DNA from: Escherichia coli
GTDB taxonomy: Bacteria; Pseudomonadota; Gammaproteobacteria; Enterobacterales; Enterobacteriaceae
DNA length: 64,000 bases
Assembly (NCBI RefSeq): GCF_003019035.1
Contig: NZ_CP027447.1
Direction: 5' to 3' (one strand)
The notes beneath the pieces were generated by a model that had not been told where the DNA came from, did not search any database, and worked only from the letters and a program-made list of their open reading frames with translations. The translations under genes and the position numbers were made by a program. Below are positions 1 to 17,039 of the stretch, one piece after another (the first letter of the stretch is position 1; every line of letters begins with the position of its first letter).

Positions 1-1395
1 AACCAGCGTGTCATCGAGGGAGAAAAGCAGCGTTTTGTTTTGCATCGCCAGCGACACGCGGAAAAAATAATCCGACATTAATTGATCGGGTTGCGCCGCC
101 TGCGCTTTCGGATACTGGCCGTATCGGGAACTCACTTCGCGACGCCAGATTTGCGCTTCGCCCTGCTGAGTCCGGTTTACCGGCAAAACACCTTCTGGCG
201 CTTTGCTTTCGTGCGCACCAATATTTTGCGTAAACAGTTTTCCTGGCAATTGCACTTGTTCGGCAGAACCATCAAACTGACCGACAAACAGCGGAGTTTG
301 CAATTTTGAATCTTCATACCAGCACAGCCCCGCGCCACCGTCTAACGCCCCGTTGAGCTTGTCGTTTTCCTGGCTGATGTGGGAAAGCATCTCTTCAGCA
401 ATACCATGTGAATAAGGCACCGCCACACAGAAGCTGGCCCCTGCAGGCATACTGTTCCATACCGGCGTAAAATCGAAACTGGCATCTACGCTTGCGGATT
501 CATCATTTAACGCTAGAAAACTGTGCCAGCCGTCGTTGCTCATTTCGAAGCGTACGCCAGCAAAAGAAGGCATTAATCGCTGGTAGCCAAACCCCAGCAA
601 CCTGGCGCTGACCACGATGCGCTGGCGTACTGGCGTTTTTTCAGCAGCACGCTCTTCCAGGCCAAAGCTGGCTTGCCAGCGTTTTTTACCGCTCAACAAA
701 TCACTTGCGATCGCCGTGGCTTCGGTATCCTGCTGATCATCTTTAAACAGCATATCCGTGCTGGAAAATACCAGCATCTTGTCCTGATAAGTTGCGAACA
801 TCAGGGCGTTATTGCCGTTATAGCGCAACTGATAAACCGGGATGGTTTCACTATTTAGCTTAATACTACTGATTTCCGTTTTACTTAACTGGCTGTCGCT
901 GGTAGCGGCAAACAGCAATGGCTCCAGCAGCTTGCTTAAACCACTGCGCTGGATCAGCACCATATAATGAGAAAGATGGCCTTGTTTATCGTGCCATAGC
1001 GCCGCCTGCGCGGGCTGATCTAAGAGTGACGAAAAGAGCTTATCTTTTAGTGTGAGATCGTGTTCGTAGACAATGCGGCGAATGCTGCCTTCAATGCCCA
1101 GACGATCGGCATGATTCTGATAATAGAAAACGAAATCTTCACTCAGAACATCGTGGAGAAACGGAATGGTAAGGAGGTCTTTGGGAAGCTGGCTCAGAGA
1201 GTCGCTGTCGAGAAAGAGGTCCGGCTCATTGAGATCGATTTGCAGATTGTTGTGCACCACCAGCGGCGACAACGTTTTTTCTGGCCCACTGCCAGCATAT
1301 TGCAACGCCCAGACGCCAGCGGAAAGCAGTACTATTGCGCCCAAACCTACAAGACCATAGAACCGCCAGCCTTTCGCCTTTTTTTCACCACTCAT
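1..1395 (-). CDS. yfaA: DUF2138-family protein YfaA-like; N-terminal ~465 codons, 3' end lies beyond window start
   Basis: Minus-strand frame opens at ATG 1393-1395 (MSGEKKAKGWRFYGLVGLGAIVLLSAGVWALQYAGSGPEKTLSPL) with AAGGA Shine-Dalgarno upstream. The ORF track shows no minus-strand ORF closing in 1-1400, consistent with a frame running off the window edge. Identity is from recollection of YfaA and its position next to gyrA. Confidence 0.6.
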   Translation of the reverse strand, partial: MSGEKKAKGWRFYGLVGLGAIVLLSAGVWALQYAGSGPEKTLSPLVVHNNLQIDLNEPDLFLDSDSLSQLPKDLLTIPFLHDVLSEDFVFYYQNHADRLGIEGSIRRIVYEHDLTLKDKLFSSLLDQPAQAALWHDKQGHLSHYMVLIQRSGLSKLLEPLLFAATSDSQLSKTEISSIKLNSETIPVYQLRYNGNNALMFATYQDKMLVFSSTDMLFKDDQQDTEATAIASDLLSGKKRWQASFGLEERAAEKTPVRQRIVVSARLLGFGYQRLMPSFAGVRFEMSNDGWHSFLALNDESASVDASFDFTPVWNSMPAGASFCVAVPYSHGIAEEMLSHISQENDKLNGALDGGAGLCWYEDSKLQTPLFVGQFDGSAEQVQLPGKLFTQNIGAHESKAPEGVLPVNRTQQGEAQIWRREVSSRYGQYPKAQAAQPDQLMSDYFFRVSLAMQNKTLLFSLDDTLV

Positions 1396-1543
1396 TGCCA
1401 CATTCCTTGTGTAAAGCCAGCCATTTTTTACGAGCACAGCAAAACTTTACCGCGCCCTAATACGACAAAAGCCCAGACTTTGCAGCCTGGACTTTTCAAT
1501 TCAAACAAGGGAGATATCTCCCTTTTGGCATGAAGACGTAAAA

Positions 1544-4171
1544 TTATTCTTCTTCTGGCTCGTCGTCAACGTCCACTTCCGGAGCGATTTCATCGTCCCC
1601 TTCCGCGGCACTGCCGTCGATGGTATCCAGATCTTCCTCGTCAACCGGTTCAGCAACACGTTGCAGACCCACTACGTTTTCATCTTCCGCAGTACGGATG
1701 AGGATCACACCCTGGGTGTTACGGCCCACGATGCTGATTTCTGAAACGCGAGTACGTACCAGCGTACCGGCATCGGTGATCATCATGATCTGGTCGCAGT
1801 CATCTACCTGCACTGCGCCAACCACTAAACCGTTACGTTCGGTAACCTTGATGGAAATAACCCCTTTCGTCGCACGCGACTTGGTTGGGTATTCCGCCAC
1901 TGCGGTACGTTTACCATAACCGTTCTGCGTTGCGGTGAGGATTGCGCCATCACCACGAGGTACGATCAGAGAGACGACTTTATCGCCTTCGCCTAAACGA
2001 ATACCGCGAACACCGGTGGTGTTGCAGCCCATCGCACGGACAGAAGACTCTTTAAAGCGCACCACTTTACCTTCAGCGGAGAACAGCATTACTTCATCTT
2101 CGCCACTGGTCAGGTCAACGCCGATCAGCTCATCGCCTTCAACCAGTTTGATCGCCACTTTACCGGCAGTACGCAGACGGTTGAATTCGGTGAGGACGGT
2201 TTTCTTCACAGTTCCGTTAGCGGTCGCCATGAAGACTTTCACGCCTTCTTCAAACTCGGTCACTGGCAGGATCGCAGTGATACGTTCGTCTTGCTCCAGC
2301 GGCAGCAGGTTGACGATCGGACGACCGCGCGCGCCACGAGTAGCTTCTGGCAACTGGTAGACCTTCATCGAATAGACGCGACCACGGCTGGAGAAGCACA
2401 GAATATGGTCGTGGGTATTCGCCACCAGCAGTCGGTCGATAAAGTCTTCTTCTTTAATACGTGCGGCAGATTTACCTTTACCGCCACGACGCTGCGCTTC
2501 GTATTCAGAAAGCGGCTGATACTTCACGTAGCCCTGGTGAGAGAGCGTCACGACCACATCTTCCTGGGTGATCAGATCTTCCAGGTTGATGTCTGCGCTG
2601 TTGGCGGTGATTTCAGTACGACGTTTGTCACCGAACTGTTCACGAACCAGCTCCAGCTCTTCGCGGATCACTTCCATCAGACGATCGGCGCTACCAAGAA
2701 TACGCAACAGTTCCGCGATCTGATCCAGCAGCTCTTTGTATTCGTCGAGCAGTTTTTCGTGCTCAAGGCCGGTCAGTTTCTGCAGACGCAGATCCAGAAT
2801 CGCCTGAGCTTGCTGTTCGGTCAGGTAGTACAGACCATCGCGCACGCCGAACTCTGGCTCCAGCCATTCCGGACGCGCAGCATCGTCGCCAGCACGTTCC
2901 AGCATCGCGGCAACGTTGCCCAGCTGCCACGGATTAGCAACCAGCGCGGTTTTCGCTTCTGCAGGCGTCGGCGCATGACGGATCAGTTCGATGATCGGGT
3001 CAATGTTCGCCAGCGCCACGGCTAATGCTTCAAGGATATGAGCACGATCGCGAGCTTTACGCAGTTCGAAAATAGTACGACGGGTCACCACTTCACGGCG
3101 GTGACGAACAAACGCCGCGATGATGTCTTTCAGGTTCATGATCTTCGGCTGACCATGGTGCAATGCCACCATGTTAATACCGAAAGAAACCTGCAACTGG
3201 GTCTGGGAGTAGAGGTTGTTGAGCACCACTTCACCGACCGCATCGCGTTTCACTTCAATCACGATGCGCATACCGTCTTTGTCAGACTCGTCACGCAGCG
3301 CGCTGATACCTTCCACGCGTTTTTCTTTTACCAGTTCCGCAATCTTCTCGATCAGGCGCGCTTTGTTCACCTGATACGGAATTTCATGGACGATAATGGT
3401 TTCACGTCCGGTTTTGGCGTCAACTTCCACTTCAGCACGGGCGCGGATATATACCTTGCCGCGACCGGTACGGTAAGCTTCTTCAATACCGCGACGACCA
3501 TTAATGATTGCCGCCGTCGGGAAGTCCGGCCCAGGAATGTGTTCCATCAGCCCTTCAATGCTGATGTCTTCATCATCGATATACGCCAGACAACCGTTGA
3601 TAACTTCCGTCAGGTTGTGCGGCGGGATGTTGGTTGCCATACCTACGGCGATACCGGAGGAACCGTTCACCAGCAGGTTAGGAATTTTGGTTGGCATGAC
3701 GTCCGGAATTTTTTCCGTGCCGTCATAGTTATCAACGAAATCGACCGTCTCTTTTTCGAGATCGGCCATCAGTTCATGGGCAATTTTCGCCAGACGGATT
3801 TCCGTATAACGCATTGCCGCCGCAGAGTCGCCGTCGATGGAACCGAAGTTACCCTGACCGTCTACCAGCATGTAACGCAGCGAGAATGGCTGCGCCATAC
3901 GGACGATCGTGTCATAAACCGCCGAGTCACCATGGGGATGGTATTTACCGATTACGTCACCAACGACACGGGCAGATTTTTTATAGGCTTTGTTCCAGTC
4001 ATTGCCTAGTACGTTCATGGCGTAAAGTACGCGACGGTGTACCGGCTTCAGGCCATCTCGGACATCCGGCAGCGCACGGCCAACAATGACCGACATCGCA
4101 TAATCCAGATAGGAGCTCTTCAGCTCTTCCTCAATGTTGACCGGTGTAATTTCTCTCGCAAGGTCGCTCAT
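1544..4171 (-). CDS. gyrA: DNA gyrase subunit A
   Basis: 875-aa ORF with the canonical E. coli GyrA sequence ([47 protein letters not shown]; active-site region; acidic C-terminal tail). QRDR reads [11 protein letters not shown], i.e. Ser83 and Asp87. Confidence 0.97.
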
Positions 4172-4384
4172 CTAACCGCTATCCCTCTACTGTATCCCGG
4201 ATTCAAAGGTCGGAGATTATAACACAATCGCTTGCGGACGGGTAAACGTAATGCAGGCTTCCGGGCGCTGTAGATCTACTGCGTTTTACCCCACCGCCAG
4301 CACACATCGCGCTGGCGGTGAACGACAAAGGAACAAAGACCGCAACACGCTTCCTGTGCCTCAATAAACACCAGAAATAATGGC

Positions 4385-4548
4385 TATACTCGTCATACTT
4401 CAAGTTGCATGTGCTGCGTCTGCGGGTTATTCGGCCCATCCATGGGCCTCACCCCTTACGGGGCCGCTGCAAGCAGCGTTCAAATCCGCTCCATGCGGAT
4501 TTGTCGCTCACCCCAGTCACTTACTTATGTAAGCTCCTTGGGATTCAC
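4385..4548. repeat. ERIC (enterobacterial repetitive intergenic consensus / IRU) element
   Basis: Both classic ERIC ends are present: actcgtcatacttcaagttgcatgtgctgcg at the left, and cgctcaccccagtcacttacttatgtaagctccttgggattcac at the right. The right end contains the complements of the standard ERIC2 and ERIC1R primer sequences. It is intergenic, between the gyrA promoter region and the island. Confidence 0.8.
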
Positions 4549-4599
4549 TCGCTTGTCGCCTTCCTGCAACTCGAATTATTTAGAGTATATAAATCGCCG

Positions 4600-5802
4600 T
4601 TATTTGATCACATAGGCAAGATATTGTTGTACGATTTCATCGTTTAATTCCTGACCAAGCCCAGGCAACTCTGGCGCGACATAATAGCCATTCTCGGGTT
4701 GATAATCGTAAGTACAAAGTTCCCGAATACATGCTTTCATCGCATTGGTATGATGTTCATGAATAATAAAGTTAGGTATTGCAGTTTCCATATGCAGCGC
4801 CGCTACTGTTGAAACAGGCCCGCCACAAACATGTACCTGAACGGTTGTGTCATATATATTGGCATAATCACAAATTTTCTTTCCCTCTGTAATGCCACCA
4901 CAAAGACACAAATCAGGTTGAGCTACCGCAATTGATTGTTTTTCCAGTAAATCACGATATCCCCAGCGAGTATAAGAACGCTCACCTGTTGCTATCGGAA
5001 TCGATGTTGAACGGGCAACTTTCTGCATATTATCCGAATTTAATGGATGAATTGGCTCCTCATAGAGAAAAATACGATATTTCTCTATTGCTTTGGCAAA
5101 CTGGATCGCTGAATTTGTTCCTAGAAGAGAATGAATCTCTACAATAATATCAGCATCGTCGCCCATTGCTTCACGCATAGCGGCAATTCTTGTCTCGCCC
5201 ATTTTTAATTGTTCGGCCAGTAATAAGCCAGAGTAATTTCTATTTTTGTTCTGAAAGACACAATCGCCGCCATGCAGATCGATTTCAAGCGGATCAACTT
5301 TTATCGCATTATAACCTTCTGCAATAGCGGCACGCGCTGCCTCTGCATACTCTTCAGGCGTTACTAATATTTGCCTTTTTTCGCCCCAACCAAATTGTAA
5401 CTGACTGGCGTAAGTTCTCAATTTATCGTTAGTCTTTCCCCCCAGTAGTTGATAAACCGGCACGTTTAAATATTTACCTTTAATATCCCATAAGGCAATA
5501 TCAATAGCGCTCATACCTGCGTAAAAAACATTACCACCGCCCATTCCCCAAAATGTTTTCCTGAAGAGGAATTCCCAAATCTTCTCAATGTTCAACGGAT
5601 CTTCACCAATGATGAGAGGGGCTAAATCTCTGATAATACCAACACCAGATTTTGCACCTGCGCCATAGGCTAATCCTACTTCGCCAACACCACTTATTCC
5701 AGCATCGGTATTAACCCGAATAAGTACTGGATTATAAGAGGCCATAGTTTGATCTCTTTTTTTGAGTTCGCAGTCAAAAATTTCTACAGATGTAATCTTC
5801 AT
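4600..5802 (-). CDS. Enolase-superfamily acid-sugar dehydratase (mandelate racemase/muconate lactonizing enzyme fold; D-galactonate/D-mannonate dehydratase-like)
   Basis: ORF 4600-5814; preferred start is the second ATG at 5802 (MKITSVEIF...), which has a GAGG Shine-Dalgarno 6 nt upstream. Motifs such as AIDIALWDIKGKYLNVPVYQLLGG and GERSYTRWGYRDLLEKQSIAVAQPDLCLCGGITEGKKI resemble DgoD/RspA/RhmD-type dehydratases. Substrate cannot be assigned. Confidence 0.8.
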   Translation of the reverse strand: MKITSVEIFDCELKKRDQTMASYNPVLIRVNTDAGISGVGEVGLAYGAGAKSGVGIIRDLAPLIIGEDPLNIEKIWEFLFRKTFWGMGGGNVFYAGMSAIDIALWDIKGKYLNVPVYQLLGGKTNDKLRTYASQLQFGWGEKRQILVTPEEYAEAARAAIAEGYNAIKVDPLEIDLHGGDCVFQNKNRNYSGLLLAEQLKMGETRIAAMREAMGDDADIIVEIHSLLGTNSAIQFAKAIEKYRIFLYEEPIHPLNSDNMQKVARSTSIPIATGERSYTRWGYRDLLEKQSIAVAQPDLCLCGGITEGKKICDYANIYDTTVQVHVCGGPVSTVAALHMETAIPNFIIHEHHTNAMKACIRELCTYDYQPENGYYVAPELPGLGQELNDEIVQQYLAYVIK

Positions 5803-5814
5803 AAATAACCTCAT

Positions 5815-7143
5815 TTATTTAGCATGTGAAATAACATTGTCTTTCTGGGCGTTATCTTTTTTATTATCAATTTTCATTGATAACAAAATAGCTACGGCGA
5901 TAAAGCAAAGAATCGCCTCAACAATAAATATCCCCGTGGCTCCATAATGTGTAGAAACATAGCCAAGTGATTTATTGATCAGAAAACCACCCAAACTTGA
6001 ACAAGAGTTAATAAACGCAATACTGATTGCCAGGCCTGATGGTGAAAGTAAAGCTGAGGGTAAAGCCCAGTACGGACCGTAATAACTGAGAATGCCTACA
6101 CCGTATAATGTTAATCCCATCATGCGCAGCGTCATCGAAGGTACAAGTGCGATCATTAAAAAACCGCAACCTGCAACCAACATCGGTAGTGCGGCATGCC
6201 ATTTCCTTTCATTCTTTTTATCGGAATGCCATCCCCATAATGGCATACTGAACATCGCGAAAATAAACGGAATACTCATAATCAAACCGACATCGGTATC
6301 TGTGAAATCCGATGAAAATCCTTTAACCAACCCCGGTAACCAGTAATTTGCCGCCAACGCCGCTGCCTGAATAAACATATAAGCAAATGAGAGTTGTAGT
6401 AATACTGGATTTTTAATGATTGACAGAAAAGATGCATTTGTATTTTTATTTAATGCTGCGGCTTTTTCGTTATCAGAATTAAGTTTATCGACCAATGCGG
6501 TGACTTGCGATGGTGTAAGCCAGCGGGCTTTTTCCGGACGATCTGGCAGTAAATAAAAGGTCAGCGCCCCCAATAACACCGTAGGAATGCCTTCAATAGC
6601 AAAAAGCCAGCGCCATCCTTCATAGTTACCGGTATTCATATGTTCAATAATCCAACCAGACATTGGTGCCGCCAGCACAGATGCAACTGCGATTGATAAC
6701 ATAAAAAAGCTATTCACTTTTCCACGTTCACGCGCCGGGAACCAACATGCCAGGTAGTAAACCATGCCAGGGAAAAAACCCGCTTCAAATATTCCCAAAA
6801 AGACCCGAGCGAGCAATATATGCTGGGTGTCTTTGGCAAAGAAAATTAACGTTGTTACTGTTCCCCAACCAACAATAATGGCGCTAATCCATTTTCTTGC
6901 ACCTAACTTTTGCAATCCAATACTGCTCGGAATTTGAAAAATCAAATAGGACACAAAAAATATTGAAGATATATTAGCAAAATCCTCTGGAGTAATACCA
7001 AGGGATTCATTCATGCGTAAAGCGGCAAATCCGATGTTAACACGATCCATATAGTTAAAAAAATACAGAATAAATGCTAACGGAATAATCTTCCTTTTCA
7101 CAATAGAAATGGCGTCATACAAATCTTTCTGAGGACTGCTCAT
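5815..7143 (-). CDS. MFS transporter, anion:cation symporter (ACS) family, putative sugar-acid permease
   Basis: 442-aa ORF with good SD (AAAGGTGA). Hydrophobic multi-helix protein with ACS signature regions ([33 protein letters not shown]) paralogous to RhmT in this window. Its stop abuts the dehydratase start. Confidence 0.85.
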   Translation of the reverse strand: MSSPQKDLYDAISIVKRKIIPLAFILYFFNYMDRVNIGFAALRMNESLGITPEDFANISSIFFVSYLIFQIPSSIGLQKLGARKWISAIIVGWGTVTTLIFFAKDTQHILLARVFLGIFEAGFFPGMVYYLACWFPARERGKVNSFFMLSIAVASVLAAPMSGWIIEHMNTGNYEGWRWLFAIEGIPTVLLGALTFYLLPDRPEKARWLTPSQVTALVDKLNSDNEKAAALNKNTNASFLSIIKNPVLLQLSFAYMFIQAAALAANYWLPGLVKGFSSDFTDTDVGLIMSIPFIFAMFSMPLWGWHSDKKNERKWHAALPMLVAGCGFLMIALVPSMTLRMMGLTLYGVGILSYYGPYWALPSALLSPSGLAISIAFINSCSSLGGFLINKSLGYVSTHYGATGIFIVEAILCFIAVAILLSMKIDNKKDNAQKDNVISHAK

Positions 7144-7233
7144 TTTGTTTCACCTTTTGTGCTTCAATGAATAAGAGTACTGCCCGAAGTGGATATTACG
7201 TAAAAAATAATCCAGTTCAAAAGGTGATGTGTT

Positions 7234-7249
7234 ATATCTGATATATCAG
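7234..7249. promoter_or_regulatory. Candidate operator 1 in the divergent MFS/GntR promoter region; contains the perfect 12-bp palindrome CTGATATATCAG
   Basis: atatctgatatat at 7234-7246, with the palindrome ctgatatatcag at 7238-7249. The same 13-mer recurs at 7304-7316. Located between divergent genes, one of which is a GntR regulator. Confidence 0.5.
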
Positions 7250-7303
7250 CTTGATCATTGATTGAAACACTAAGCTACAACAATAAGATATATCATTTTT
7301 GTC

Positions 7304-7316
7304 ATATCTGATATAT
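7304..7316. promoter_or_regulatory. Candidate operator 2 (second copy of ATATCTGATATAT)
   Basis: Exact 13-bp direct repeat of the 7234-7246 motif, 70 bp downstream and about 65 bp upstream of the GntR start codon. Confidence 0.45.
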
Positions 7317-7380
7317 TAGACACCTTCATTGATAAAATGATTACATATAATGGACCAGCAGCTTAATAAGGGGCAAAGGA

Positions 7381-8079
7381 ATGAGAGATAAAGCGAAACG
7401 TGACTTAAGTCACATATCAATTGAGATACCAAAATCCGTAACACAGGTCATCAAAGAAAAAATCAGGGATATGATAATTCATGGCGATCTCAGTCTTGGG
7501 CAACCGATAAGTGAAAATGAACTTTCGAATATCCTGGCGGTAAGTAAAACACCTATTCGTGAAGCTTTTATTTTACTTAGTCACAATGAAAATCTGATCA
7601 ATATCATTCCACGCAGCGGAACATTCGTTTTTTCCGTAACAGATAAAGATATTAATGACCTCATAAAAATGCGAGTAATTCTGGAGCAGGGTGCAATTCG
7701 TGAAGCAATGGAAAAGAATGAAAACAATGTCATCATTGAATTAAGTAGCATACTATCAAAATCAGCAAAAATTAATGCCGAGCGTGATACTCAGGCTTAT
7801 CTTAAATTGGATCATGATTTTCATTATGTGTTTGTTAAATACGCTGCTAATAAATACATCTCTCAGGCACACCAATTGATATCCGCACGTTTACTTGCTA
7901 TTCGTTATCGACTGGATTTCACTACGGAATATATTACCAATTCAAATCGTGGCCATGCCACTATTTTAGATATGCTAAAAAATAATAACGTTGAAGGTGT
8001 TTGTAATTTTATTACTCATCACGTAAGTAGTGGATTTACCGAGCGTGCACGAAAAATTCTCTCGTTATCTACACAGTAA
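7381..8079 (+). CDS. GntR-family (FadR/FCD-type) transcriptional regulator
   Basis: 232-aa ORF with an N-terminal winged-HTH pattern (LSLGQPISENELSNILAVSKTPIREAF) and a helical C-terminal ligand-binding-like domain. Divergent to the transporter-dehydratase pair; AGGGG SD 8 nt upstream. Confidence 0.8.
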   Translation: MRDKAKRDLSHISIEIPKSVTQVIKEKIRDMIIHGDLSLGQPISENELSNILAVSKTPIREAFILLSHNENLINIIPRSGTFVFSVTDKDINDLIKMRVILEQGAIREAMEKNENNVIIELSSILSKSAKINAERDTQAYLKLDHDFHYVFVKYAANKYISQAHQLISARLLAIRYRLDFTTEYITNSNRGHATILDMLKNNNVEGVCNFITHHVSSGFTERARKILSLSTQ

Positions 8080-8156
8080 AATGTGAATGAGTTTATAACA
8101 CTGGCACTTTTCACCTGCTATACTGCCCGACAACCTTTATAGACTCTTATGTAACA

Positions 8157-8879
8157 ATGAACACTGAAAATCTCCTTAAAAACAATAACGTAGACCACGA
8201 AGAGATCGCTAAATTTGAAGCCGTCGCCTCCCGCTGGTGGGATCTTGAAGGTGAGTTCAAACCGCTGCACCGCATTAACCCGCTGCGTCTGGGCTATATT
8301 GCCGAGCGTGCTGGCGGTTTATTTGGCAAAAAGGTGCTCGATGTCGGTTGTGGCGGCGGCATTCTGGCCGAGAGTATGGCGCGCGAAGGCGCGACGGTGA
8401 CCGGTCTGGATATGGGCTTTGAGCCATTGCAGGTGGCAAAGTTGCACGCGCTGGAAAGTGGCATTCAGGTAGAGTACGTGCAGGAAACCGTGGAAGAGCA
8501 CGCGGCAAAACATGCCGGGCAGTATGACGTGGTGACCTGCATGGAGATGCTGGAGCACGTGCCCGATCCGCAGTCAGTGGTCAGAGCCTGTGCGCAACTG
8601 GTGAAACCGGGCGGCGATGTCTTTTTCTCGACGCTTAACCGCAACGGCAAGTCATGGCTGATGGCGGTAGTCGGCGCAGAATATATTTTGCGCATGGTGC
8701 CTAAAGGTACACATGATGTGAAGAAGTTTATTAAACCGGCAGAATTGCTGGGCTGGGTGGATCAGACAAGCCTTAAAGAGCGGCATATGACTGGGCTGCA
8801 TTACAACCCGATCACTAATTCCTTTAAGCTCGGCCCCGGCGTGGATGTGAACTATATGCTGCATACGCAGAATAAGTGA
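8157..8879 (+). CDS. ubiG: Bifunctional 3-demethylubiquinone-9 3-O-methyltransferase / 2-polyprenyl-6-hydroxyphenol methylase
   Basis: 240-aa ORF with SAM-binding motif [13 protein letters not shown] and an otherwise UbiG-typical sequence ([46 protein letters not shown]). Confidence 0.95.
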
Positions 8880-8914
8880 GGTTGTTGTTTGGATTCAGCC
8901 GACGACCGAGCCAA

Positions 8915-8996
8915 GCCTGATGCGACGCTTGCCGCGTCTTATCAGGCCTACAAATGCTCCCGTAGGCCAGATAAGGCGTTTACGCCGCATCCGGCA
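8915..8996. repeat. REP/BIME element (two inverted REP units)
   Basis: gcctgatgcgacgcttgccgcgtcttatcaggcctac followed by the inverted unit gtaggccagataaggcgtttacgccgcatccggca, lying between convergent ubiG and yfaL. Confidence 0.8.
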
Positions 8997-9017
8997 ACAG
9001 TGCCGGTCAGACAGCGA

Positions 9018-12000
9018 TTACCATTTCACTGTCATCGACAAAAACCCTGCCGTCTGGGCAAAATCATCACTCCCTTTCTGCCACGCCACGCTACCACGCA
9101 GCGAAACTCGCTGACTGATATTGCCCGTTATTCCCACTTTTATTTCACCCCGTTGCTTCACCGCATCGTCACTGATAGTGCTGCCATCTTCTTCAATTTC
9201 CGTCGCATGGGGATCGTGATAATAATTCAGATCTAATGTTGGTATGACACCAACCGCGGTACGCCATTCGCTGTGTAAACCCAGCCGCGTTTGAATATCA
9301 TCACCCTGCGATTGTGACACCCGCGCATGGTTAGCAGCGGTGAAATCATCCTGCTGCACGCCCTGATAAATCACCTGCGCCTGTGGTTCAATCACCACTC
9401 CATGCCCCGGTAACCACTGATACCCGGCTTCCAGCGAGGCGATAATCCCCGATGAGTGGTAATGATCCGCGCCATCTTCATGTTCGGAAACATCATTGTT
9501 AAACCACGCGTATTGCAGCCAGCTATCCAGCCAGGCCCCCTGCTTCTGATTACCGTGCTGGAACCAGCTTGAGGTCAGACCAACGGCATAACCGTGGTTC
9601 TGGTTATCGGCGCGAGTTCCGGTCATATTCGAGCGGCTGTCGCCCTGGTTATCACTGTAGCCACCAACCGCCCCAAGCATCCACTCGCCATCCATGCCCC
9701 AGCGCCCGCTAAACAAGTCGCCGCTAAGCTGCACCGTAGAAGTGTCTTCATGCTGAGCCAGTTGCCCCGCTGCTGTGTAATGATAATCTCCGCCGATAAC
9801 ACGTAAATTCAGCGTCTGACCATCGCCACCAGCGTGATCGCGTCGCTCCATCACAAATGCCTGATTTGCCGCACGTAGGTTATTGAGATAGCCACCAACT
9901 TTGGCATTCAGCACCGGCTGGTAGGCAGGCGTAGGGGCTGGAGCCGGGTCGGGTGTTGGATCAGGATCCGGCGTAGGATCAGGATCTGGAGTCGGGTCTG
10001 GATCGGGCGGCGATGGTGGCGTTACTTCTTGCGATCGCAGATACCAGTCGTTGTTATCTTCCACCAGCGTGTAGTCATACGCTCCCATATTGACGTAGCC
10101 GCTGCCCGCCAGACTGAACTGCGCATTGTTTTGAAATTGCGTTGGATCGGCTGCGAAATCAACCACTTTAATGCCCGTAGATGTCGGCTCACCAATACCC
10201 GTAATGGGATTAATTACCACGGTCGTGTTGCCAGCAGTATTACCGTTCAACACCAGTTGGTCGCTTGCCGAGTCATCGCCGTTTAATTCGCTGTCGAGAA
10301 ACAACGTACCGCCACCGGTGTAATCACCGTTTACCGTGAGCGTGTCGCCAGCAACGCCATTTTGCAGACTGACAGCACCGGAAGTATTAGTTAGATCACC
10401 ATTGACCGTCACGTCTGAAAGATAAGTCAGGCTGTCAGTTTCAAGGTTGGTATTAAGCTCGCCTGTCAGCGTCACACCATCGGTGGCATTCACCAACGTA
10501 CCGTCGCCGCTAAACAGCGAGGCATCCAGCGCCTGGTTCGTATCCTGCTGCGTCAATCGCAACACAGTACCATCGGTTATGTCGATATCGCCGCCAGAGG
10601 TGGCATCGATTGAACGAATATCCTGATTTTGCCCGGTTTCAAAAACACCGTCTTCCCCCACCCACAGTGAAGAAACATAAGGAATAATATTCTCCGCTTC
10701 ACCTTTTAGCGTTCCGTCCTCCACACGTACCGCAGACGTCGCAGTGCCGCTGGCGGTCAACTCCAGCGTCCCGCCGCCACTTTTAGTCAACGTGCTTACG
10801 CTATCCAGTTGTTGCCCGGTACTATCCGCCATCAACCCGCCCCATTGCGTATCTACGCCATCCTCAACGTGTATTTCGCCATCAGCGCGCATTTCAATAT
10901 TCCTGCCCTGACCTGTTGTAGCCGAGCGAGTGTCAACATCAGTCGTCACATCCATTTCACTGTGTTGTTGGGGATCTGTGAAGATCACTGAACGGTTGTA
11001 ACTTGTGTCCCCCAATTGCGAATTATCGCTGACTTCAAGCGTACCGGAGGCGATTTGCGTATTACCGAGATAACCGTTGTTATTCGCCAGCGTTACGCGC
11101 TGATCCCCCGCATTAATGACGACATAAACGCCATTCTGGCTGGCATCACTGCCGCCAATATGTAAATCATCGCCACTGCTGATATCAACGACATCATTAC
11201 TACCAATCACTGTCCCCCCGCTGCCGCTGATTTGCAGACCGTCATTGTATGAGCTATCGCCATCCCAGGTGGTGAAATCAGAGAGATCCAATACTCCGCC
11301 ATTTAGCACGATCGATTGCGGATCGCTCTGCATTGCCCGTAAATCGGCCTGATTCCCCGCCAGCGACAATACGGCGTTATCTTCCACCACAATATCGCCG
11401 GTTAATGCCATCGACTGCGCCCCTGTCAGGAGATAGCTGCCATCTTGCGCTACCGTCAACTGTCCTTCACCCTGAATCGAGCCGGAAAAACCGCCCTGGT
11501 TTACGGTAACATTGCCGCCTGCGTCGATATTCAAAATGCCATTAGCAAAACCGGTTAATGAGTGCACAAACGTTTGTTGTGTATTGCCAACATTCAGTTC
11601 TGCCTGATACTCAGAATGAACAGTGCTGCCGACCATCAGACCAAAGCAATCCTGCGGATCGCTCTGACAGTGCGTGTCGCCGACATTCATTAACTCATCG
11701 CTGCGCCCCAACGTCACCTCGCCATTCTGGATACTCATCTCGCCGGTAAACGCATTATTGTCGGCATTGAGGACTAACTCTCCCGCTCCCTCTTTAACGA
11801 TGACTCCCGTTCCGGCAAGAGAATCAATCGCGCCATCGTTGCTGGTATTGCCTATTACCAGCGTTTTATCGGCGGCAATGTTAAATTCAGCCACACTATG
11901 ACCGATATACATAAAGCCCCCCGCCGCTGCCGTCGCCGAATGGTCATATCCCGAGGCGCTGTTATTTTCATCAATCATCACACCATTGTTTTGGTCATAA

Positions 12001-12782
12001 TTATCATCAACAGAAATATCAATAAGATACGGGGATGTGGTGCTGCTGGTATAAATTGCTCCGCCATAACCTTCTGCATAGTTATTGGTAAAGGAGGTAT
12101 TATTAATTATCGTTTTTCCTGAAAGATGTGTGTTATCCGTACTATTATCCGTAACATCAATGGCACCGCCGTCCCCATCACTATAGCTGGTTGATGTATA
12201 TGCCTGATTATTATCAAAAATGACATCACTTAAATAAATATCATTATTGATAGAATAAATAGCGCCACCTTTACCATCATTGGCGATATTATTCGCAAAT
12301 ATTGCATTAGTGATATTTAAATCCATATCACCGGCATCGTTTGTTCCCGCAGAATAGATTGCTCCGCCATAGCCTCCTGCAACGTTACTGTCGAAAATAA
12401 CATTCGCAAGATTTATCATTGAGTTTTCTTTAGCAAAGATAGCTCCGCCATTATTATATTCGCCACTAATCGAGTTATTAGCAAACAGGGTCATCCCTGT
12501 TTCATTTTGTGGTGATATCGTAAATTCAGCACTTTGCTGCAAAAATACGGCGCCACCGCTGGCATTATTGGCCATACCCGAAAAAATCACCCATTGCCCA
12601 TCGGCGATGCTCCAGTCCTGCGTAATGCCTGAAAGGCTTTGCCTGCTGGCCTGACAACTCGCTTTGATATCATATCCCTGGCATGAATCCAAAACCTCCG
12701 CGACACTGTTAACAGAGAAAAGAGATGCAATCATTGACGGGAGTAAAGATAAATACTCCTTGCGTAGAAAAATAATCCGCAT
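9018..12782 (-). CDS. yfaL: Autotransporter adhesin (AIDA-I type, YfaL/EhaC)
   Basis: 1254-aa ORF with signal peptide, a long Gly/Asn/Thr-rich beta-helix passenger domain, a Pro-rich linker (PPSPPDPDPTPDPDPTPDPDPTPDPAPAPTP) and a C-terminal beta-barrel translocator ending in W. Confidence 0.9.
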   Translation of the reverse strand: MRIIFLRKEYLSLLPSMIASLFSVNSVAEVLDSCQGYDIKASCQASRQSLSGITQDWSIADGQWVIFSGMANNASGGAVFLQQSAEFTISPQNETGMTLFANNSISGEYNNGGAIFAKENSMINLANVIFDSNVAGGYGGAIYSAGTNDAGDMDLNITNAIFANNIANDGKGGAIYSINNDIYLSDVIFDNNQAYTSTSYSDGDGGAIDVTDNSTDNTHLSGKTIINNTSFTNNYAEGYGGAIYTSSTTSPYLIDISVDDNYDQNNGVMIDENNSASGYDHSATAAAGGFMYIGHSVAEFNIAADKTLVIGNTSNDGAIDSLAGTGVIVKEGAGELVLNADNNAFTGEMSIQNGEVTLGRSDELMNVGDTHCQSDPQDCFGLMVGSTVHSEYQAELNVGNTQQTFVHSLTGFANGILNIDAGGNVTVNQGGFSGSIQGEGQLTVAQDGSYLLTGAQSMALTGDIVVEDNAVLSLAGNQADLRAMQSDPQSIVLNGGVLDLSDFTTWDGDSSYNDGLQISGSGGTVIGSNDVVDISSGDDLHIGGSDASQNGVYVVINAGDQRVTLANNNGYLGNTQIASGTLEVSDNSQLGDTSYNRSVIFTDPQQHSEMDVTTDVDTRSATTGQGRNIEMRADGEIHVEDGVDTQWGGLMADSTGQQLDSVSTLTKSGGGTLELTASGTATSAVRVEDGTLKGEAENIIPYVSSLWVGEDGVFETGQNQDIRSIDATSGGDIDITDGTVLRLTQQDTNQALDASLFSGDGTLVNATDGVTLTGELNTNLETDSLTYLSDVTVNGDLTNTSGAVSLQNGVAGDTLTVNGDYTGGGTLFLDSELNGDDSASDQLVLNGNTAGNTTVVINPITGIGEPTSTGIKVVDFAADPTQFQNNAQFSLAGSGYVNMGAYDYTLVEDNNDWYLRSQEVTPPSPPDPDPTPDPDPTPDPDPTPDPAPAPTPAYQPVLNAKVGGYLNNLRAANQAFVMERRDHAGGDGQTLNLRVIGGDYHYTAAGQLAQHEDTSTVQLSGDLFSGRWGMDGEWMLGAVGGYSDNQGDSRSNMTGTRADNQNHGYAVGLTSSWFQHGNQKQGAWLDSWLQYAWFNNDVSEHEDGADHYHSSGIIASLEAGYQWLPGHGVVIEPQAQVIYQGVQQDDFTAANHARVSQSQGDDIQTRLGLHSEWRTAVGVIPTLDLNYYHDPHATEIEEDGSTISDDAVKQRGEIKVGITGNISQRVSLRGSVAWQKGSDDFAQTAGFLSMTVKW
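9933..10015. repeat. Short tandem repeat inside yfaL encoding the (PDPDPT)n linker
   Basis: Repeating ggatcaggatc / ggatctggagtcgggtctggatc units on the plus strand, corresponding to the PDPDPTPDPDPTPDPDPTPDP linker on the coding strand. Confidence 0.6.
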
Positions 12783-13315
12783 ATTAATCTGACCATCATT
12801 TTCTATAAGACGGCATATTTAATCGCATTATACGATATGGGTTATTTTTCTTTTGTAAATTGTTCAACCCGGTGCAATGGCTATTTTGTTATTATTTCAT
12901 GAATAATATCAGTGCGTCATAATTCAAGTTAATCACCTTAAGGGATATCAGTTATGTTTAAACTGAATTAAAGTAATGAATAATTTTCTTATAATATAAG
13001 GTAAATTAACAAAATGGCTTCGCATTTAACAACAACCGAAGAGAAAACAACCATTTCGACATCAACAATCGCTTACATTCGCTTATATATTGACCATAAC
13101 TGATACATCAGATTATGTGATGACTCGTGCTTAGATCAATTTTTGCAATCATTAGCCAAAAGATTAATAAACCATCTATATCAATTTATCTAACCTATTC
13201 TTCCGTTCAAGAAATCGCCGAACAGTTATTTTTAACAAATTTTTCTCTTCCCATTGACTTTCCCGGACACCTTGTCTGACCTAAGGTGCGCGAAAGCCAC
13301 TTTTTCCTTCCTGAG

Positions 13316-13324
13316 TTATCCACA
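13316..13324 (+). promoter_or_regulatory. DnaA box (TTATCCACA) in the nrdAB promoter region
   Basis: Perfect 9-mer consensus ttatccaca about 150 bp upstream of the nrdA start. Confidence 0.6.
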
Positions 13325-13353
13325 AAGTTATGCACTTGCAAGAGGGCCATTTT

Positions 13354-13400
13354 CACACTATCTTGCAGTGAATCCCAAACATACCCCCTATATATAGTGT
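13354..13400 (+). promoter_or_regulatory. Tandem NrdR-box-like palindromes upstream of nrdA
   Basis: cacactatcttgcagtg (13354-13370) and ccctatatatagtgt (13385-13400) resemble the 16-bp NrdR consensus; centres are about 31 bp apart (three helical turns). Confidence 0.55.
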
Positions 13401-13477
13401 TCTAAGCAGCTTCCCTCACTACAGGTAGTCTGCATGAAACTATTGCGGAAAGAATTCCAAAAACAGGTACGACATAC

Positions 13478-15763
13478 ATGAATCAGAATCTGCTGGTGAC
13501 AAAGCGCGACGGTAGCACAGAGCGCATCAATCTCGACAAAATCCATCGCGTTCTGGATTGGGCGGCAGAAGGACTGCATAACGTTTCGATTTCCCAGGTC
13601 GAACTGCGCTCCCACATTCAGTTTTATGACGGTATCAAGACCTCTGACATCCACGAAACCATTATCAAGGCTGCCGCAGACCTGATCTCCCGTGATGCGC
13701 CGGATTATCAGTATCTCGCCGCGCGCCTGGCGATCTTCCACCTGCGTAAAAAAGCCTACGGCCAGTTTGAGCCGCCTGCGCTGTACGACCACGTGGTGAA
13801 AATGGTCGAGATGGGCAAATACGATAATCATCTGCTGGAAGACTACACGGAAGAAGAGTTCAAGCAGATGGACACGTTTATCGATCACGACCGTGATATG
13901 ACCTTCTCTTATGCTGCCGTTAAGCAGCTGGAAGGCAAATATCTGGTGCAGAACCGTGTGACCGGCGAAATCTACGAAAGCGCCCAGTTCCTTTATATTC
14001 TGGTTGCCGCGTGCCTGTTCTCGAACTACCCGCGTGAAACGCGCCTGCAATACGTGAAGCGTTTTTACGACGCGGTTTCCACATTTAAAATTTCGCTGCC
14101 GACGCCAATCATGTCCGGCGTGCGTACCCCGACTCGTCAGTTCAGCTCCTGCGTACTGATCGAGTGCGGCGACAGCCTGGATTCCATCAACGCCACCTCC
14201 AGCGCGATTGTTAAATACGTTTCCCAGCGTGCCGGGATCGGCATCAACGCCGGGCGTATTCGTGCGCTGGGTAGCCCGATTCGCGGTGGCGAAGCGTTCC
14301 ATACCGGTTGTATTCCGTTCTATAAGCATTTCCAGACAGCGGTGAAATCCTGCTCTCAGGGCGGTGTGCGTGGCGGTGCGGCTACGCTGTTCTACCCGAT
14401 GTGGCATCTGGAAGTTGAAAGCCTGCTGGTGTTGAAAAACAACCGTGGGGTGGAAGGCAACCGCGTGCGTCATATGGACTACGGGGTACAAATCAACAAA
14501 CTGATGTATACCCGTCTGCTGAAAGGTGAAGATATCACTCTGTTCAGCCCGTCCGACGTACCGGGGTTGTACGACGCGTTCTTCGCCGATCAGGAAGAGT
14601 TTGAACGCCTGTATACCAAATATGAGAAAGACGACAGCATCCGCAAGCAGCGTGTGAAAGCCGTTGAGCTGTTCTCGCTGATGATGCAGGAACGTGCGTC
14701 TACCGGTCGTATCTATATTCAGAACGTTGACCACTGCAATACCCATAGCCCGTTTGATCCGGTCATCGCGCCAGTGCGCCAGTCTAACCTGTGCCTGGAA
14801 ATCGCCCTGCCGACCAAACCGCTGAACGACGTCAACGACGAGAACGGTGAAATCGCGCTGTGTACGCTGTCTGCTTTCAACCTGGGCGCAATTAACAGCC
14901 TGGATGAACTGGAAGAGCTGGCAATTCTGGCGGTTCGCGCACTCGACGCACTGCTGGATTATCAGGATTACCCGATCCCGGCCGCTAAACGTGGAGCGAT
15001 GGGGCGTCGTACGCTGGGTATTGGTGTGATCAACTTCGCTTACTACCTGGCGAAGCACGGTAAACGCTACTCCGACGGCAGCGCCAACAACCTGACGCAT
15101 AAAACCTTCGAAGCCATTCAGTATTACCTGCTGAAAGCGTCTAATGAGCTGGCGAAAGAGCAAGGCGCGTGCCCGTGGTTTAACGAAACCACTTACGCGA
15201 AAGGGATCCTGCCGATCGATACCTATAAGAAAGATCTGGATGCCATCGCTAATGAGCCGCTGCATTACGACTGGGAAGCACTGCGTGAGTCAATCAAAAC
15301 GCACGGCCTGCGTAACTCCACGCTTTCTGCTCTGATGCCGTCAGAGACTTCTTCGCAGATCTCTAACGCCACTAACGGTATTGAACCGCCGCGTGGTTAC
15401 GTCAGCATCAAAGCGTCGAAAGACGGTATTCTGCGCCAGGTGGTGCCGGACTACGAGCATCTGCACGACGCCTATGAGCTGCTGTGGGAAATGCCGGGTA
15501 ACGATGGCTATCTGCAACTGGTGGGTATCATGCAGAAATTTATCGATCAGTCGATCTCTGCTAACACCAACTACGATCCATCACGTTTCCCGTCAGGAAA
15601 AGTGCCGATGCAGCAGTTGCTGAAAGACCTGCTCACCGCCTACAAATTCGGGGTCAAAACGCTGTATTATCAGAACACCCGTGACGGTGCTGAAGACGCA
15701 CAAGACGATCTGGTGCCGTCAATCCAGGACGATGGCTGCGAAAGCGGCGCATGTAAGATCTGA
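13478..15763 (+). CDS. nrdA: Ribonucleoside-diphosphate reductase 1 alpha subunit
   Basis: 761-aa ORF with ATP-cone N-terminus (MNQNLLVTKRDGSTERINLDKIHRVLDWAAEG) and the class Ia RNR catalytic core. Confidence 0.97.
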   Translation: MNQNLLVTKRDGSTERINLDKIHRVLDWAAEGLHNVSISQVELRSHIQFYDGIKTSDIHETIIKAAADLISRDAPDYQYLAARLAIFHLRKKAYGQFEPPALYDHVVKMVEMGKYDNHLLEDYTEEEFKQMDTFIDHDRDMTFSYAAVKQLEGKYLVQNRVTGEIYESAQFLYILVAACLFSNYPRETRLQYVKRFYDAVSTFKISLPTPIMSGVRTPTRQFSSCVLIECGDSLDSINATSSAIVKYVSQRAGIGINAGRIRALGSPIRGGEAFHTGCIPFYKHFQTAVKSCSQGGVRGGAATLFYPMWHLEVESLLVLKNNRGVEGNRVRHMDYGVQINKLMYTRLLKGEDITLFSPSDVPGLYDAFFADQEEFERLYTKYEKDDSIRKQRVKAVELFSLMMQERASTGRIYIQNVDHCNTHSPFDPVIAPVRQSNLCLEIALPTKPLNDVNDENGEIALCTLSAFNLGAINSLDELEELAILAVRALDALLDYQDYPIPAAKRGAMGRRTLGIGVINFAYYLAKHGKRYSDGSANNLTHKTFEAIQYYLLKASNELAKEQGACPWFNETTYAKGILPIDTYKKDLDAIANEPLHYDWEALRESIKTHGLRNSTLSALMPSETSSQISNATNGIEPPRGYVSIKASKDGILRQVVPDYEHLHDAYELLWEMPGNDGYLQLVGIMQKFIDQSISANTNYDPSRFPSGKVPMQQLLKDLLTAYKFGVKTLYYQNTRDGAEDAQDDLVPSIQDDGCESGACKI

Positions 15764-15770
15764 TTTTGAG

Positions 15771-15886
15771 ATGCCGGATGCGGCGTGAACGCCTTATCTG
15801 GCCTACGGCTCGGTTTGTAGGCCTGATAAGACGCGCCAGCGTCGCATCAGGCACAGGATGCGGCGTAAAATGCCTTATCCGGCATT
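15771..15886. repeat. REP/BIME cluster in the nrdA-nrdB intergenic region
   Basis: Three REP-like units: gatgccggatgcggcgtgaacgccttatctggcctac, gtaggcctgataagacgcgccagcgtcgcatcaggc and ggatgcggcgtaaaatgccttatccggca. Confidence 0.8.
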
Positions 15887-15908
15887 AAACTCCCAACAGG
15901 ACACATTC

Positions 15909-17039
15909 ATGGCATATACCACCTTTTCACAGACGAAAAATGATCAGCTGAAAGAACCGATGTTCTTTGGTCAGCCGGTCAACGTGGCTCGCTACGATCA
16001 GCAAAAATATGACATCTTCGAAAAGCTGATCGAAAAGCAGCTCTCTTTCTTCTGGCGTCCGGAAGAAGTTGACGTTTCTCGTGACCGTATCGATTACCAG
16101 GCACTACCTGAACACGAAAAACACATCTTTATCAGCAACCTGAAATATCAGACGCTGCTGGACTCCATTCAGGGTCGCAGCCCGAACGTGGCACTGCTGC
16201 CGCTGATCTCGATCCCGGAACTGGAAACCTGGGTAGAAACCTGGGCGTTCTCAGAAACGATTCATTCCCGCTCCTATACCCATATCATCCGTAATATCGT
16301 TAACGATCCGTCGGTTGTGTTTGACGATATCGTCACTAACGAGCAGATCCAGAAACGTGCGGAAGGGATCTCCAGCTATTACGATGAACTGATCGAAATG
16401 ACCAGCTACTGGCATCTGCTGGGCGAAGGCACCCACACCGTCAACGGTAAAACCGTGACCGTTAGCCTACGTGAGCTGAAGAAAAAACTGTATCTCTGCC
16501 TGATGAGCGTTAACGCGCTGGAAGCGATTCGTTTCTATGTCAGCTTTGCTTGTTCTTTCGCATTTGCGGAACGCGAACTGATGGAAGGCAACGCCAAGAT
16601 TATTCGCTTGATTGCCCGTGACGAAGCCCTACACCTGACCGGCACCCAGCATATGCTGAATCTGCTGCGCAGCGGCGCGGATGATCCGGAGATGGCGGAA
16701 ATTGCCGAAGAATGTAAGCAGGAGTGCTATGACCTGTTTGTCCAGGCGGCACAGCAAGAGAAAGACTGGGCGGATTATCTGTTCCGTGATGGTTCGATGA
16801 TTGGTCTGAATAAAGACATCCTCTGCCAGTACGTTGAATACATCACCAATATCCGTATGCAGGCAGTCGGTTTGGATCTGCCGTTCCAGACGCGCTCCAA
16901 CCCGATCCCGTGGATCAACACCTGGCTGGTGTCTGATAACGTGCAGGTTGCTCCGCAGGAAGTGGAAGTCAGTTCTTATCTGGTCGGTCAGATTGACGCG
17001 GAAGTGGACACCGACGATTTGAGTAACTTCCAGCTCTGA
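15909..17039 (+). CDS. nrdB: Ribonucleoside-diphosphate reductase 1 beta subunit
   Basis: ORF 15858-17039. Preferred start is ATG 15909 ([37 protein letters not shown]), giving 376 aa; di-iron/tyrosyl-radical protein sequence. Confidence 0.95.

Follow-up and report, generated by a model that had tools for sequence, protein, structure and literature searches.

Why does ubiG of one Escherichia coli chromosome begin with ten codons unlike those of K-12 and then continue as the same gene? In the stretch of DNA analysed here (the window; 64,000 nt of contig NZ_CP027447.1, assembly GCF_003019035.1), these codons form the right end of a tract at 4213-8184, delimited by the first and last sites that differ from K-12, which is unlike cassette-free E. 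coli along its whole length. Its contents are the gyrA promoter region, an ERIC-like repeat, a three-gene cassette and the start of ubiG, with its promoter, leader and codons 1 to 10. We consider it probable (roughly 70%) that an E. coli lineage acquired this tract of about 4 kb from a diverged enterobacterium through homologous recombination.

The ubiG coding sequence (8157-8879, + strand, 240 aa) has the same start in RefSeq (UbiG accessions WP_001091059.1 and WP_001091058.1). Its product, a predicted bifunctional ubiquinone O-methyltransferase, scored 303.1 bits against the NCBIfam equivalog TIGR01983 over residues 16-234 (curated cutoff, 102.95) and matched PDB 4kdc with an E value of 1.5e-158. 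The glycine-rich motif of class I SAM-methyltransferases is found at residues 60-68 (VLDVGCGGG), and all four residues described for the SAH pocket of UbiG (Val12, Ile17, Met86 and Met131; PMC4796655) are present in the translation. From the match to 4kdc and 95% identity to K-12 UbiG, the window protein is predicted to be an O-methyltransferase of ubiquinone synthesis.

The original prediction was that the first ten or so codons of ubiG may differ from the K-12 allele. We compared the window with MG1655 (NC_000913, 2336000-2345000; ubiG, b2232, at 2339567-2340289) and found that MG1655 UbiG begins with MNAEKSPVNHNVDHEE, exactly as the prediction had it, and that the N-termini do differ over this length. 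Twelve of the 28 nt in 8157-8184 are unlike K-12 (8162, 8163, 8165, 8171-8174, 8176-8179 and 8184), compared with one of 256 nt in 8185-8440, the next difference after 8184 being at 8246 (Fisher exact p = 8e-13). Hence, identity falls off sharply before codon 11 as predicted, with 8184 as the last differing site in the divergent, cassette-linked allele (codons 1 to 10, 8157-8186, + strand). At the protein level, residues 3-10 are unlike those of K-12 except for residue 4 (E) and residue 9 (N), whereas from codon 11 on the two proteins are the same save for D106E, I210M and T220S.

The start of the divergent allele resembles Salmonella: its first 14 nt, ATGAACACTGAAAA, are identical to those of Salmonella ubiG, so that codons 2 and 3 (AAC ACT) are Salmonella-like. 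Codons 5-10 (NLLKNN) are identical to K-12 at 17 of 30 nt and to Salmonella at 18 of 30, while K-12 and Salmonella share 21 of 30; the Salmonella N-terminus, MNTEKPSVAHN, is unlike that of the window. Since codons 5-10 are outlying relative to both K-12 and Salmonella, some in-situ change, before or after transfer, is also required. Beyond codon 10 the resemblance ends, as Salmonella ubiG is Salmonella-type throughout, whereas that of the window is of the cassette type in codons 1 to 10 only.

Upstream of ubiG, we found that the 77-nt leader (8080-8156, + strand), which is of the cassette type, gave a local alignment score of only 9 against K-12, at the level of shuffled sequences (7.2 ± 1.3; 9 was reached by 286 of 2000 shuffles). 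Apart from an extended -10 element, TGnTATACT, the similarity is not significant. Against Salmonella, the same leader scored 25 (shuffles, 7.0 ± 1.2; 25 was reached by 0 of 2000), and the sequence common to both comprises CACCTGCTATACTGCCC, TCTnATGTA and the 14-nt ubiG start. A promoter scan returned ATAACA-18-TATACT with TG in front; the extended -10 (TGCTATACT, 8116-8124) lies at an equal distance from the ATG in the window and in Salmonella, and it is kept across genera, in all haplotypes and in the deletion found in strain WB61 (described below). Hence, the ubiG core promoter is retained.

The sequence upstream of this promoter, the 5' UTR and the Shine-Dalgarno sequence are replaced. Cassette-free Enterobacteriaceae have AAGGAG or GGAG before ubiG (GGAG in the 146-bp gyrA-ubiG region of K-12, whose ubiG leader is unalignable with that of the window), whereas no Shine-Dalgarno sequence is recognisable in the window. 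The leader common to these cassette-free species reads GCTTTATTCAC-N13-CTGATATACT...AAGGAG...ATGAATGCC, ending in codons for MNAEK, an end also written as ATGAATGCCGAAAA. The original prediction that the promoter and ribosome-binding context of ubiG had been replaced therefore stands for all but the extended -10. Eight nucleotides 5' of the ubiG start is an ATG-TAA start-stop (8149-8154); at the position matching 8149, Salmonella has an ATG as well (ATG TAC TCA TGA), overlapping the ubiG ATG, and an evident Shine-Dalgarno sequence is absent from the Salmonella leader as from that of the window. No terminator was predicted in the 77 nt between the GntR gene of the cassette and ubiG, and an Rfam scan of 4000-9100 gave only sub-threshold REP-like and other weak hits, none of them in the ubiG leader.

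The spacing between gyrA (- strand) and ubiG (+ strand) is 146 bp in K-12 and 3985 bp in the window, which carries an additional 3.9 kb. The window is identical to K-12 in the stretch that runs from the gyrA start codon (4169-4171) through 4212; differences are found at 4213 and 4215 and are continuous from 4227. The gyrA leader and promoter (4172-4260, - strand) contain an extended -10, TGTGTTATAAT (reverse complement of 4216-4226), and a -35, GTTTACC (reverse complement of 4241-4247). Between the -10 and the ATG, the genera compared show almost no variation in the gyrA leader. The window differs from K-12 there by 2 nt, its discriminator (4213-4215) reading CTCC in place of the TTGC that a multi-genus alignment shows in all other taxa compared (K-12, E. 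albertii, Salmonella, Kluyvera and Pseudocitrobacter), which have no further differences in this interval. In 4213-4260 the promoter region is replaced at the left end of the tract in such a way that the -35 and extended -10 are kept and the spacer sequence is different. Beyond the -35, the window and Salmonella have GCATTnCGTTTACC in common; the GCTTTATTCG box on the gyrA side is kept in Salmonella and not in the window.

Heterologous cassette sequence extends to the stop codon of the GntR gene (8079), and E. coli-type sequence resumes only at 8185. Hence, of the two features that the original prediction offered for the 5' end of ubiG, a recombination break point is there (the step at 8184/8185) and an island junction is not. 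Compared with a classical integrative island, the tract has the deviant base composition (39% GC in the cassette, 52-58% in the flanks) and lacks both a tRNA border and a mobility gene: ARAGORN found no tRNA or tmRNA in 1-16000, and neither a domain search of the three ORFs nor the RefSeq annotation revealed an integrase, transposase or other mobility gene in the cassette. A 13-nt direct repeat brackets the cassette (GAGATTATAACAC at 4213-4225 and GAGTTTATAACAC at 8089-8101) and is degenerate in Salmonella (7 of 13 by hand count); its left copy corresponds, on the opposite strand, to the gyrA -10 and discriminator, and the GAG in it is the change specific to the window. Considered as a possible integration scar, this repeat was not adopted as the explanation, since the divergent tract runs 83 nt past the right copy, which does not coincide with the right break; it is possibly due to chance.

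The cassette appears to serve sugar-acid metabolism. Its first gene (4600-5814, - strand) encodes a predicted acid-sugar dehydratase of the enolase superfamily (MR/MLE; Pfam MR_MLE_N and MR_MLE_C) that scored below the cutoff of every NCBIfam equivalog and matched PDB 2gl5 and 4e6m, each a 'putative dehydratase protein', with E values of about 1e-258. Next to it is a predicted MFS transporter (5815-7143, - strand; MFS_1 domain) whose best matches, the D-galactonate-transporter and HpaX subfamilies, were both below their cutoffs. The third gene (7381-8079, + strand) encodes a predicted GntR/FCD regulator of the FadR type (Pfam GntR and FCD). RefSeq annotates the equivalent of 7337-8079 as a frameshifted pseudogene in strains SCU-301 and SMS-3-5; despite this call, an ORF of 232 aa runs from 7381, and both of its domains, GntR and FCD, are intact. 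In the divergent promoter region between the MFS and GntR genes are two 20-nt copies of TGTYATATCTGATATATYAG (7230-7249 and 7300-7319), 70 nt apart and each containing a palindrome, which are candidate operators for the regulator. Between gyrA and the cassette, at about 4382-4589, an imperfect palindromic repeat was read in the sequence, which we take to be ERIC/IRU-like. This repeat has a 71-nt internal insertion in SMS-3-5 and many other carriers and is about 78-80 nt shorter in yet others; a query with 4150-8250 matched a median of six places per E. coli genome.

Among 5426 complete E. coli genomes, we found the 120 nt at 8081-8200 at 99% identity or more in 142, of which 141 have the cassette; 7980-8400 is spanned in 141 genomes, all of them cassette carriers, and at least 80% of 4150-8250 is held by 140. 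The ubiG junction is one and the same in all carriers, and 141 genomes share both ends of the tract. These include SCU-301, which is 100% identical to the window, and SMS-3-5, which has the cassette-type ubiG 5' end and belongs to phylogroup F, ST354 (PMC11537424). The sole genome with the allele and without the cassette is that of WB61 (NZ_CP020025.1, 5880-6110), in which a clean deletion of about 3.84 kb joins window position ~4272 to ~8116 and keeps both TGCTATACT and a ubiG that begins MNTENLLK. Hence, the allele outlasts loss of the cassette, and the K-12-type intergenic region is not simply the cassette haplotype minus the cassette.

Outside E. coli, the closest relative of the GntR protein in protein clusters is from Salmonella enterica (88% aa identity), and Salmonella contigs have the order rcsC-gyrA-[dehydratase-MFS-GntR]-ubiG-nrdA, with the three cassette genes at the same site and in the same order and orientation. 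The ubiG leader of this locus is homologous to that of the window, with TGCTATACTGCCC and the start ATGAACACTGAAAA, and the Salmonella cassette is of similarly low GC (about 40%); downstream of ubiG, Salmonella has no yfaL, whereas the window does. Identity between the two cassettes is 92%, 89% and 88% in amino acids for the dehydratase, MFS and GntR proteins, and 82.4%, 78.8% and 79.7% in nucleotides for the respective genes; the flanking genes are 85.6% (gyrA), 80.2% (ubiG from codon 11) and 87.0% (nrdA) identical. Since the cassette has diverged as much as the core genes, the E. coli copy was not recently acquired from S. enterica. In LT2, the cassette genes presumably bear the tags STM2273-STM2275. 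Full-text searches with the locus tags of the Salmonella cassette gave incidental mentions only, with STM2273 listed as 'Dehydratase' (PMC5183578) and STM2275 as a transcriptional regulator (PMC3293720).

In other species, gyrA directly adjoins ubiG: this holds for E. albertii, for a divergent Escherichia lineage and for more than 30 other Enterobacterales among the matches listed, and among those matches no species representative besides E. coli or Salmonella has the cassette at this site. The 80 loci listed in a sample chosen by UbiG lack Salmonella, E. fergusonii, S. bongori and most Citrobacter, and its Citrobacter werkmanii locus was too short for context. By sequence, the gyrA-ubiG intergenic region falls into two deep classes, cassette-free and cassette-linked, with the window grouping with Salmonella against other Escherichia. 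The cassette-free neighbours and the leader common to cassette-free Enterobacteriaceae indicate that the K-12 type is the native Escherichia state.

E. coli is known to exchange accessory cassettes through conserved core flanks, leaving mosaic ends in core genes, as in the hitch-hiking seen beside the O-antigen cluster. The tract shares with such exchanges its sharp identity steps, its invariant junction and the absence of mobility genes; it differs in its small size (4 kb), in replacing the promoters of gyrA and ubiG, both of them central genes, and in that no donor was found. We found abrupt steps in conserved sequence on both sides, inner flanks, including the ubiG leader, that are homologous to Salmonella, junctions that do not vary among carriers, and no cassette at the site in other Escherichia or other Enterobacterales among the matches listed. 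Under homologous recombination, the donor would already have had the low-GC dehydratase/MFS/GntR cassette between gyrA and ubiG, as present-day S. enterica does. When recombination spans a heterologous insert, crossovers would be expected in the nearest conserved blocks, with everything between them replaced; the left crossover would lie within the near-invariant gyrA 5' leader and the right one where strong conservation of ubiG first sets in, at codon 11. The cassette would thus have brought along the donor's gyrA promoter together with its ubiG promoter, leader and first ten codons. We infer that E. coli was the recipient, as other Escherichia and the sampled cassette-free Enterobacteriaceae are of the K-12 type, and that a RecA-type mechanism was responsible.

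The direction of events could also be the opposite, with the cassette haplotype retained vertically from the ancestor of Escherichia and Salmonella and the K-12-type region introduced, or reintroduced, from a cassette-free relative. That the cassettes of E. coli and Salmonella have diverged (79-82% nucleotide identity) to the same degree as the flanking core genes (80-87%) speaks for such retention, as does the failure to find a closer donor among species representatives, protein clusters and a metagenome scan. However, the K-12-type leader is 96.6% identical in E. albertii, is also present in the divergent Escherichia lineage and keeps the motifs conserved in cassette-free Enterobacteriaceae, and the cassette occupies this site in no listed species representative besides those of E. 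coli and Salmonella. Retention would therefore require that the polymorphism predate the genus, or that there was an additional transfer and sweep, and we regard it as unlikely, though as an explanation to be taken seriously.

Two further explanations were considered. In one, the cassette was inserted de novo by an illegitimate junction inside ubiG, the island DNA supplying by chance a promoter, a start codon and the first ten codons; the divergent codons share the AT-richness of the cassette, and 24 nt of the GntR gene (7583-7606) are 75% identical to 8161-8184. We rejected this 24-nt similarity as the source of the new codons, as it is at the chance level estimated for a 9-nt seed in 4.1 kb of AT-rich DNA. 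The homology of the leader and first 14 coding nucleotides to Salmonella ubiG largely refutes such an insertion, the extended -10 is at the same distance from the ATG, N-termini of the form MNxE are conserved across genera, and there is no integrase, transposase or tRNA; the probability of this explanation is slight indeed. In the other, codons 5-10 were hypermutated in situ with no break here, for example by a compensated frameshift in which an A was lost from GAAAAA and another gained in the downstream A-run. The window is an outlier in these codons, and a gapped hand alignment of 8166-8189 with K-12 raises the matches from 15 to 18 of 24, although three matches gained for two gaps make the frameshift speculative; the non-homologous 77-nt leader and the Salmonella-like codons 2-3 would be left unexplained. 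As a complete account hypermutation is very unlikely, and its only possible place is as a further event within the tract that was imported. That a sequencing or assembly artefact or a mis-called start is responsible has a negligible probability, as the sequence recurs in 142 complete genomes and two metagenome contigs, there is no alternative in-frame start upstream, and RefSeq has the same start.

Searches for the donor of the imported tract covered several collections. Species representatives, protein clusters and a metagenome scan gave no lineage with a ubiG divergent past codon 10, and in the collections searched the E. coli-type cassette was found only within E. coli-like sequence. Exact 8-residue patterns from the GntR protein matched none of the GTDB species representatives, a search that excludes near-identical copies alone, as it also missed the 88%-identical Salmonella protein. 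Two metagenome contigs that matched a degenerate UbiG N-terminal pattern were rejected as donor because they are 98% identical to E. coli through ubiG, and partial GntR clusters at 92% and 58% (P0009 and P0006) turned out to be Salmonella loci with frameshifted genes. A dehydratase search of plasmids gave no true plasmid copy; three 'Salmonella plasmids' of ~500 kb with a 92% match are apparently pieces of chromosome. In Logan contigs of another organism (L008-L012), an orthologue of the cassette (87%, 81% and 72-73% aa identity for the dehydratase, MFS and GntR proteins) has an unrelated context, with BrkB-like, LysR, SDR, HEPN_STY4199 and trehalase genes as neighbours. Hence, the cassette has moved between sites or lineages. 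Metagenome contig OGRO01003671.1 has an E. coli-like cassette, and the left 3.87 kb of the contig (1-3870) consists of unrelated low-GC DNA in which there are two long ORFs. The two parts meet at the right end of the ERIC-like repeat, a junction that may reflect either a chimeric assembly or another insertion.

For UbiG itself, the change at residues 3-10 is most probably neutral and leaves enzyme function unaltered, since the family model starts at residue 16, the N-terminal tail varies freely among genera at residues 3-10, and this variable tail is untraceable in a UbiG crystal structure. A functional effect, if any, is more likely on expression than on the enzyme. The tract might rewire the expression of gyrA and ubiG at once, such that gyrase or ubiquinone homeostasis is different in carriers, or UbiG synthesis is coupled in them to the sensing of sugar acids; this idea, which we consider very improbable, derives from the altered gyrA spacer and discriminator, the lost ubiG Shine-Dalgarno sequence, the upstream ATG, and the GntR gene 77 nt away with no predicted terminator.

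The ubiG mosaic is genuine, but the process behind it is well known and the case an ordinary one, and nothing in the known function of UbiG and gyrA is changed by it; the cassette, the UbiG variant and the Salmonella counterpart (2gl5 and 4e6m) are already in public databases. It provides a base-resolved example of an accessory cassette moving between diverged enterobacteria via conserved core flanks and dragging along promoter and 5'-coding sequence of its neighbours. For carrier strains, the ubiG and gyrA-upstream alleles are not phylogenetically informative, and the variant UbiG N-terminus should be taken neither as adaptive nor as an annotation error.

Within ubiG, a second mosaic patch has 26 differences from K-12 in 8441-8864, many at sites that are also unlike E. 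albertii. Relative to SMS-3-5, itself a cassette carrier, the window has 24 ubiG differences in 8246-8843 and none in 8047-8245, along with 20 differences across the cassette, 13 of them clustered in the GntR gene. Strain SCPM-O-B-8794, the divergent Escherichia lineage cited above (L077), has 74 ubiG differences from the window in 723 sites (E. albertii, 66), and its E. coli label probably conceals a cryptic Escherichia lineage. The ubiG-yfaL gap (8880-9034) contains REP/BIME-type repeats, with sub-threshold Rfam matches to naRNA4 on both strands. The yfaL autotransporter gene (9018-12782) is highly polymorphic, with amino acid identities of 83% to K-12, 91% to E. albertii and 100% to SCU-301.
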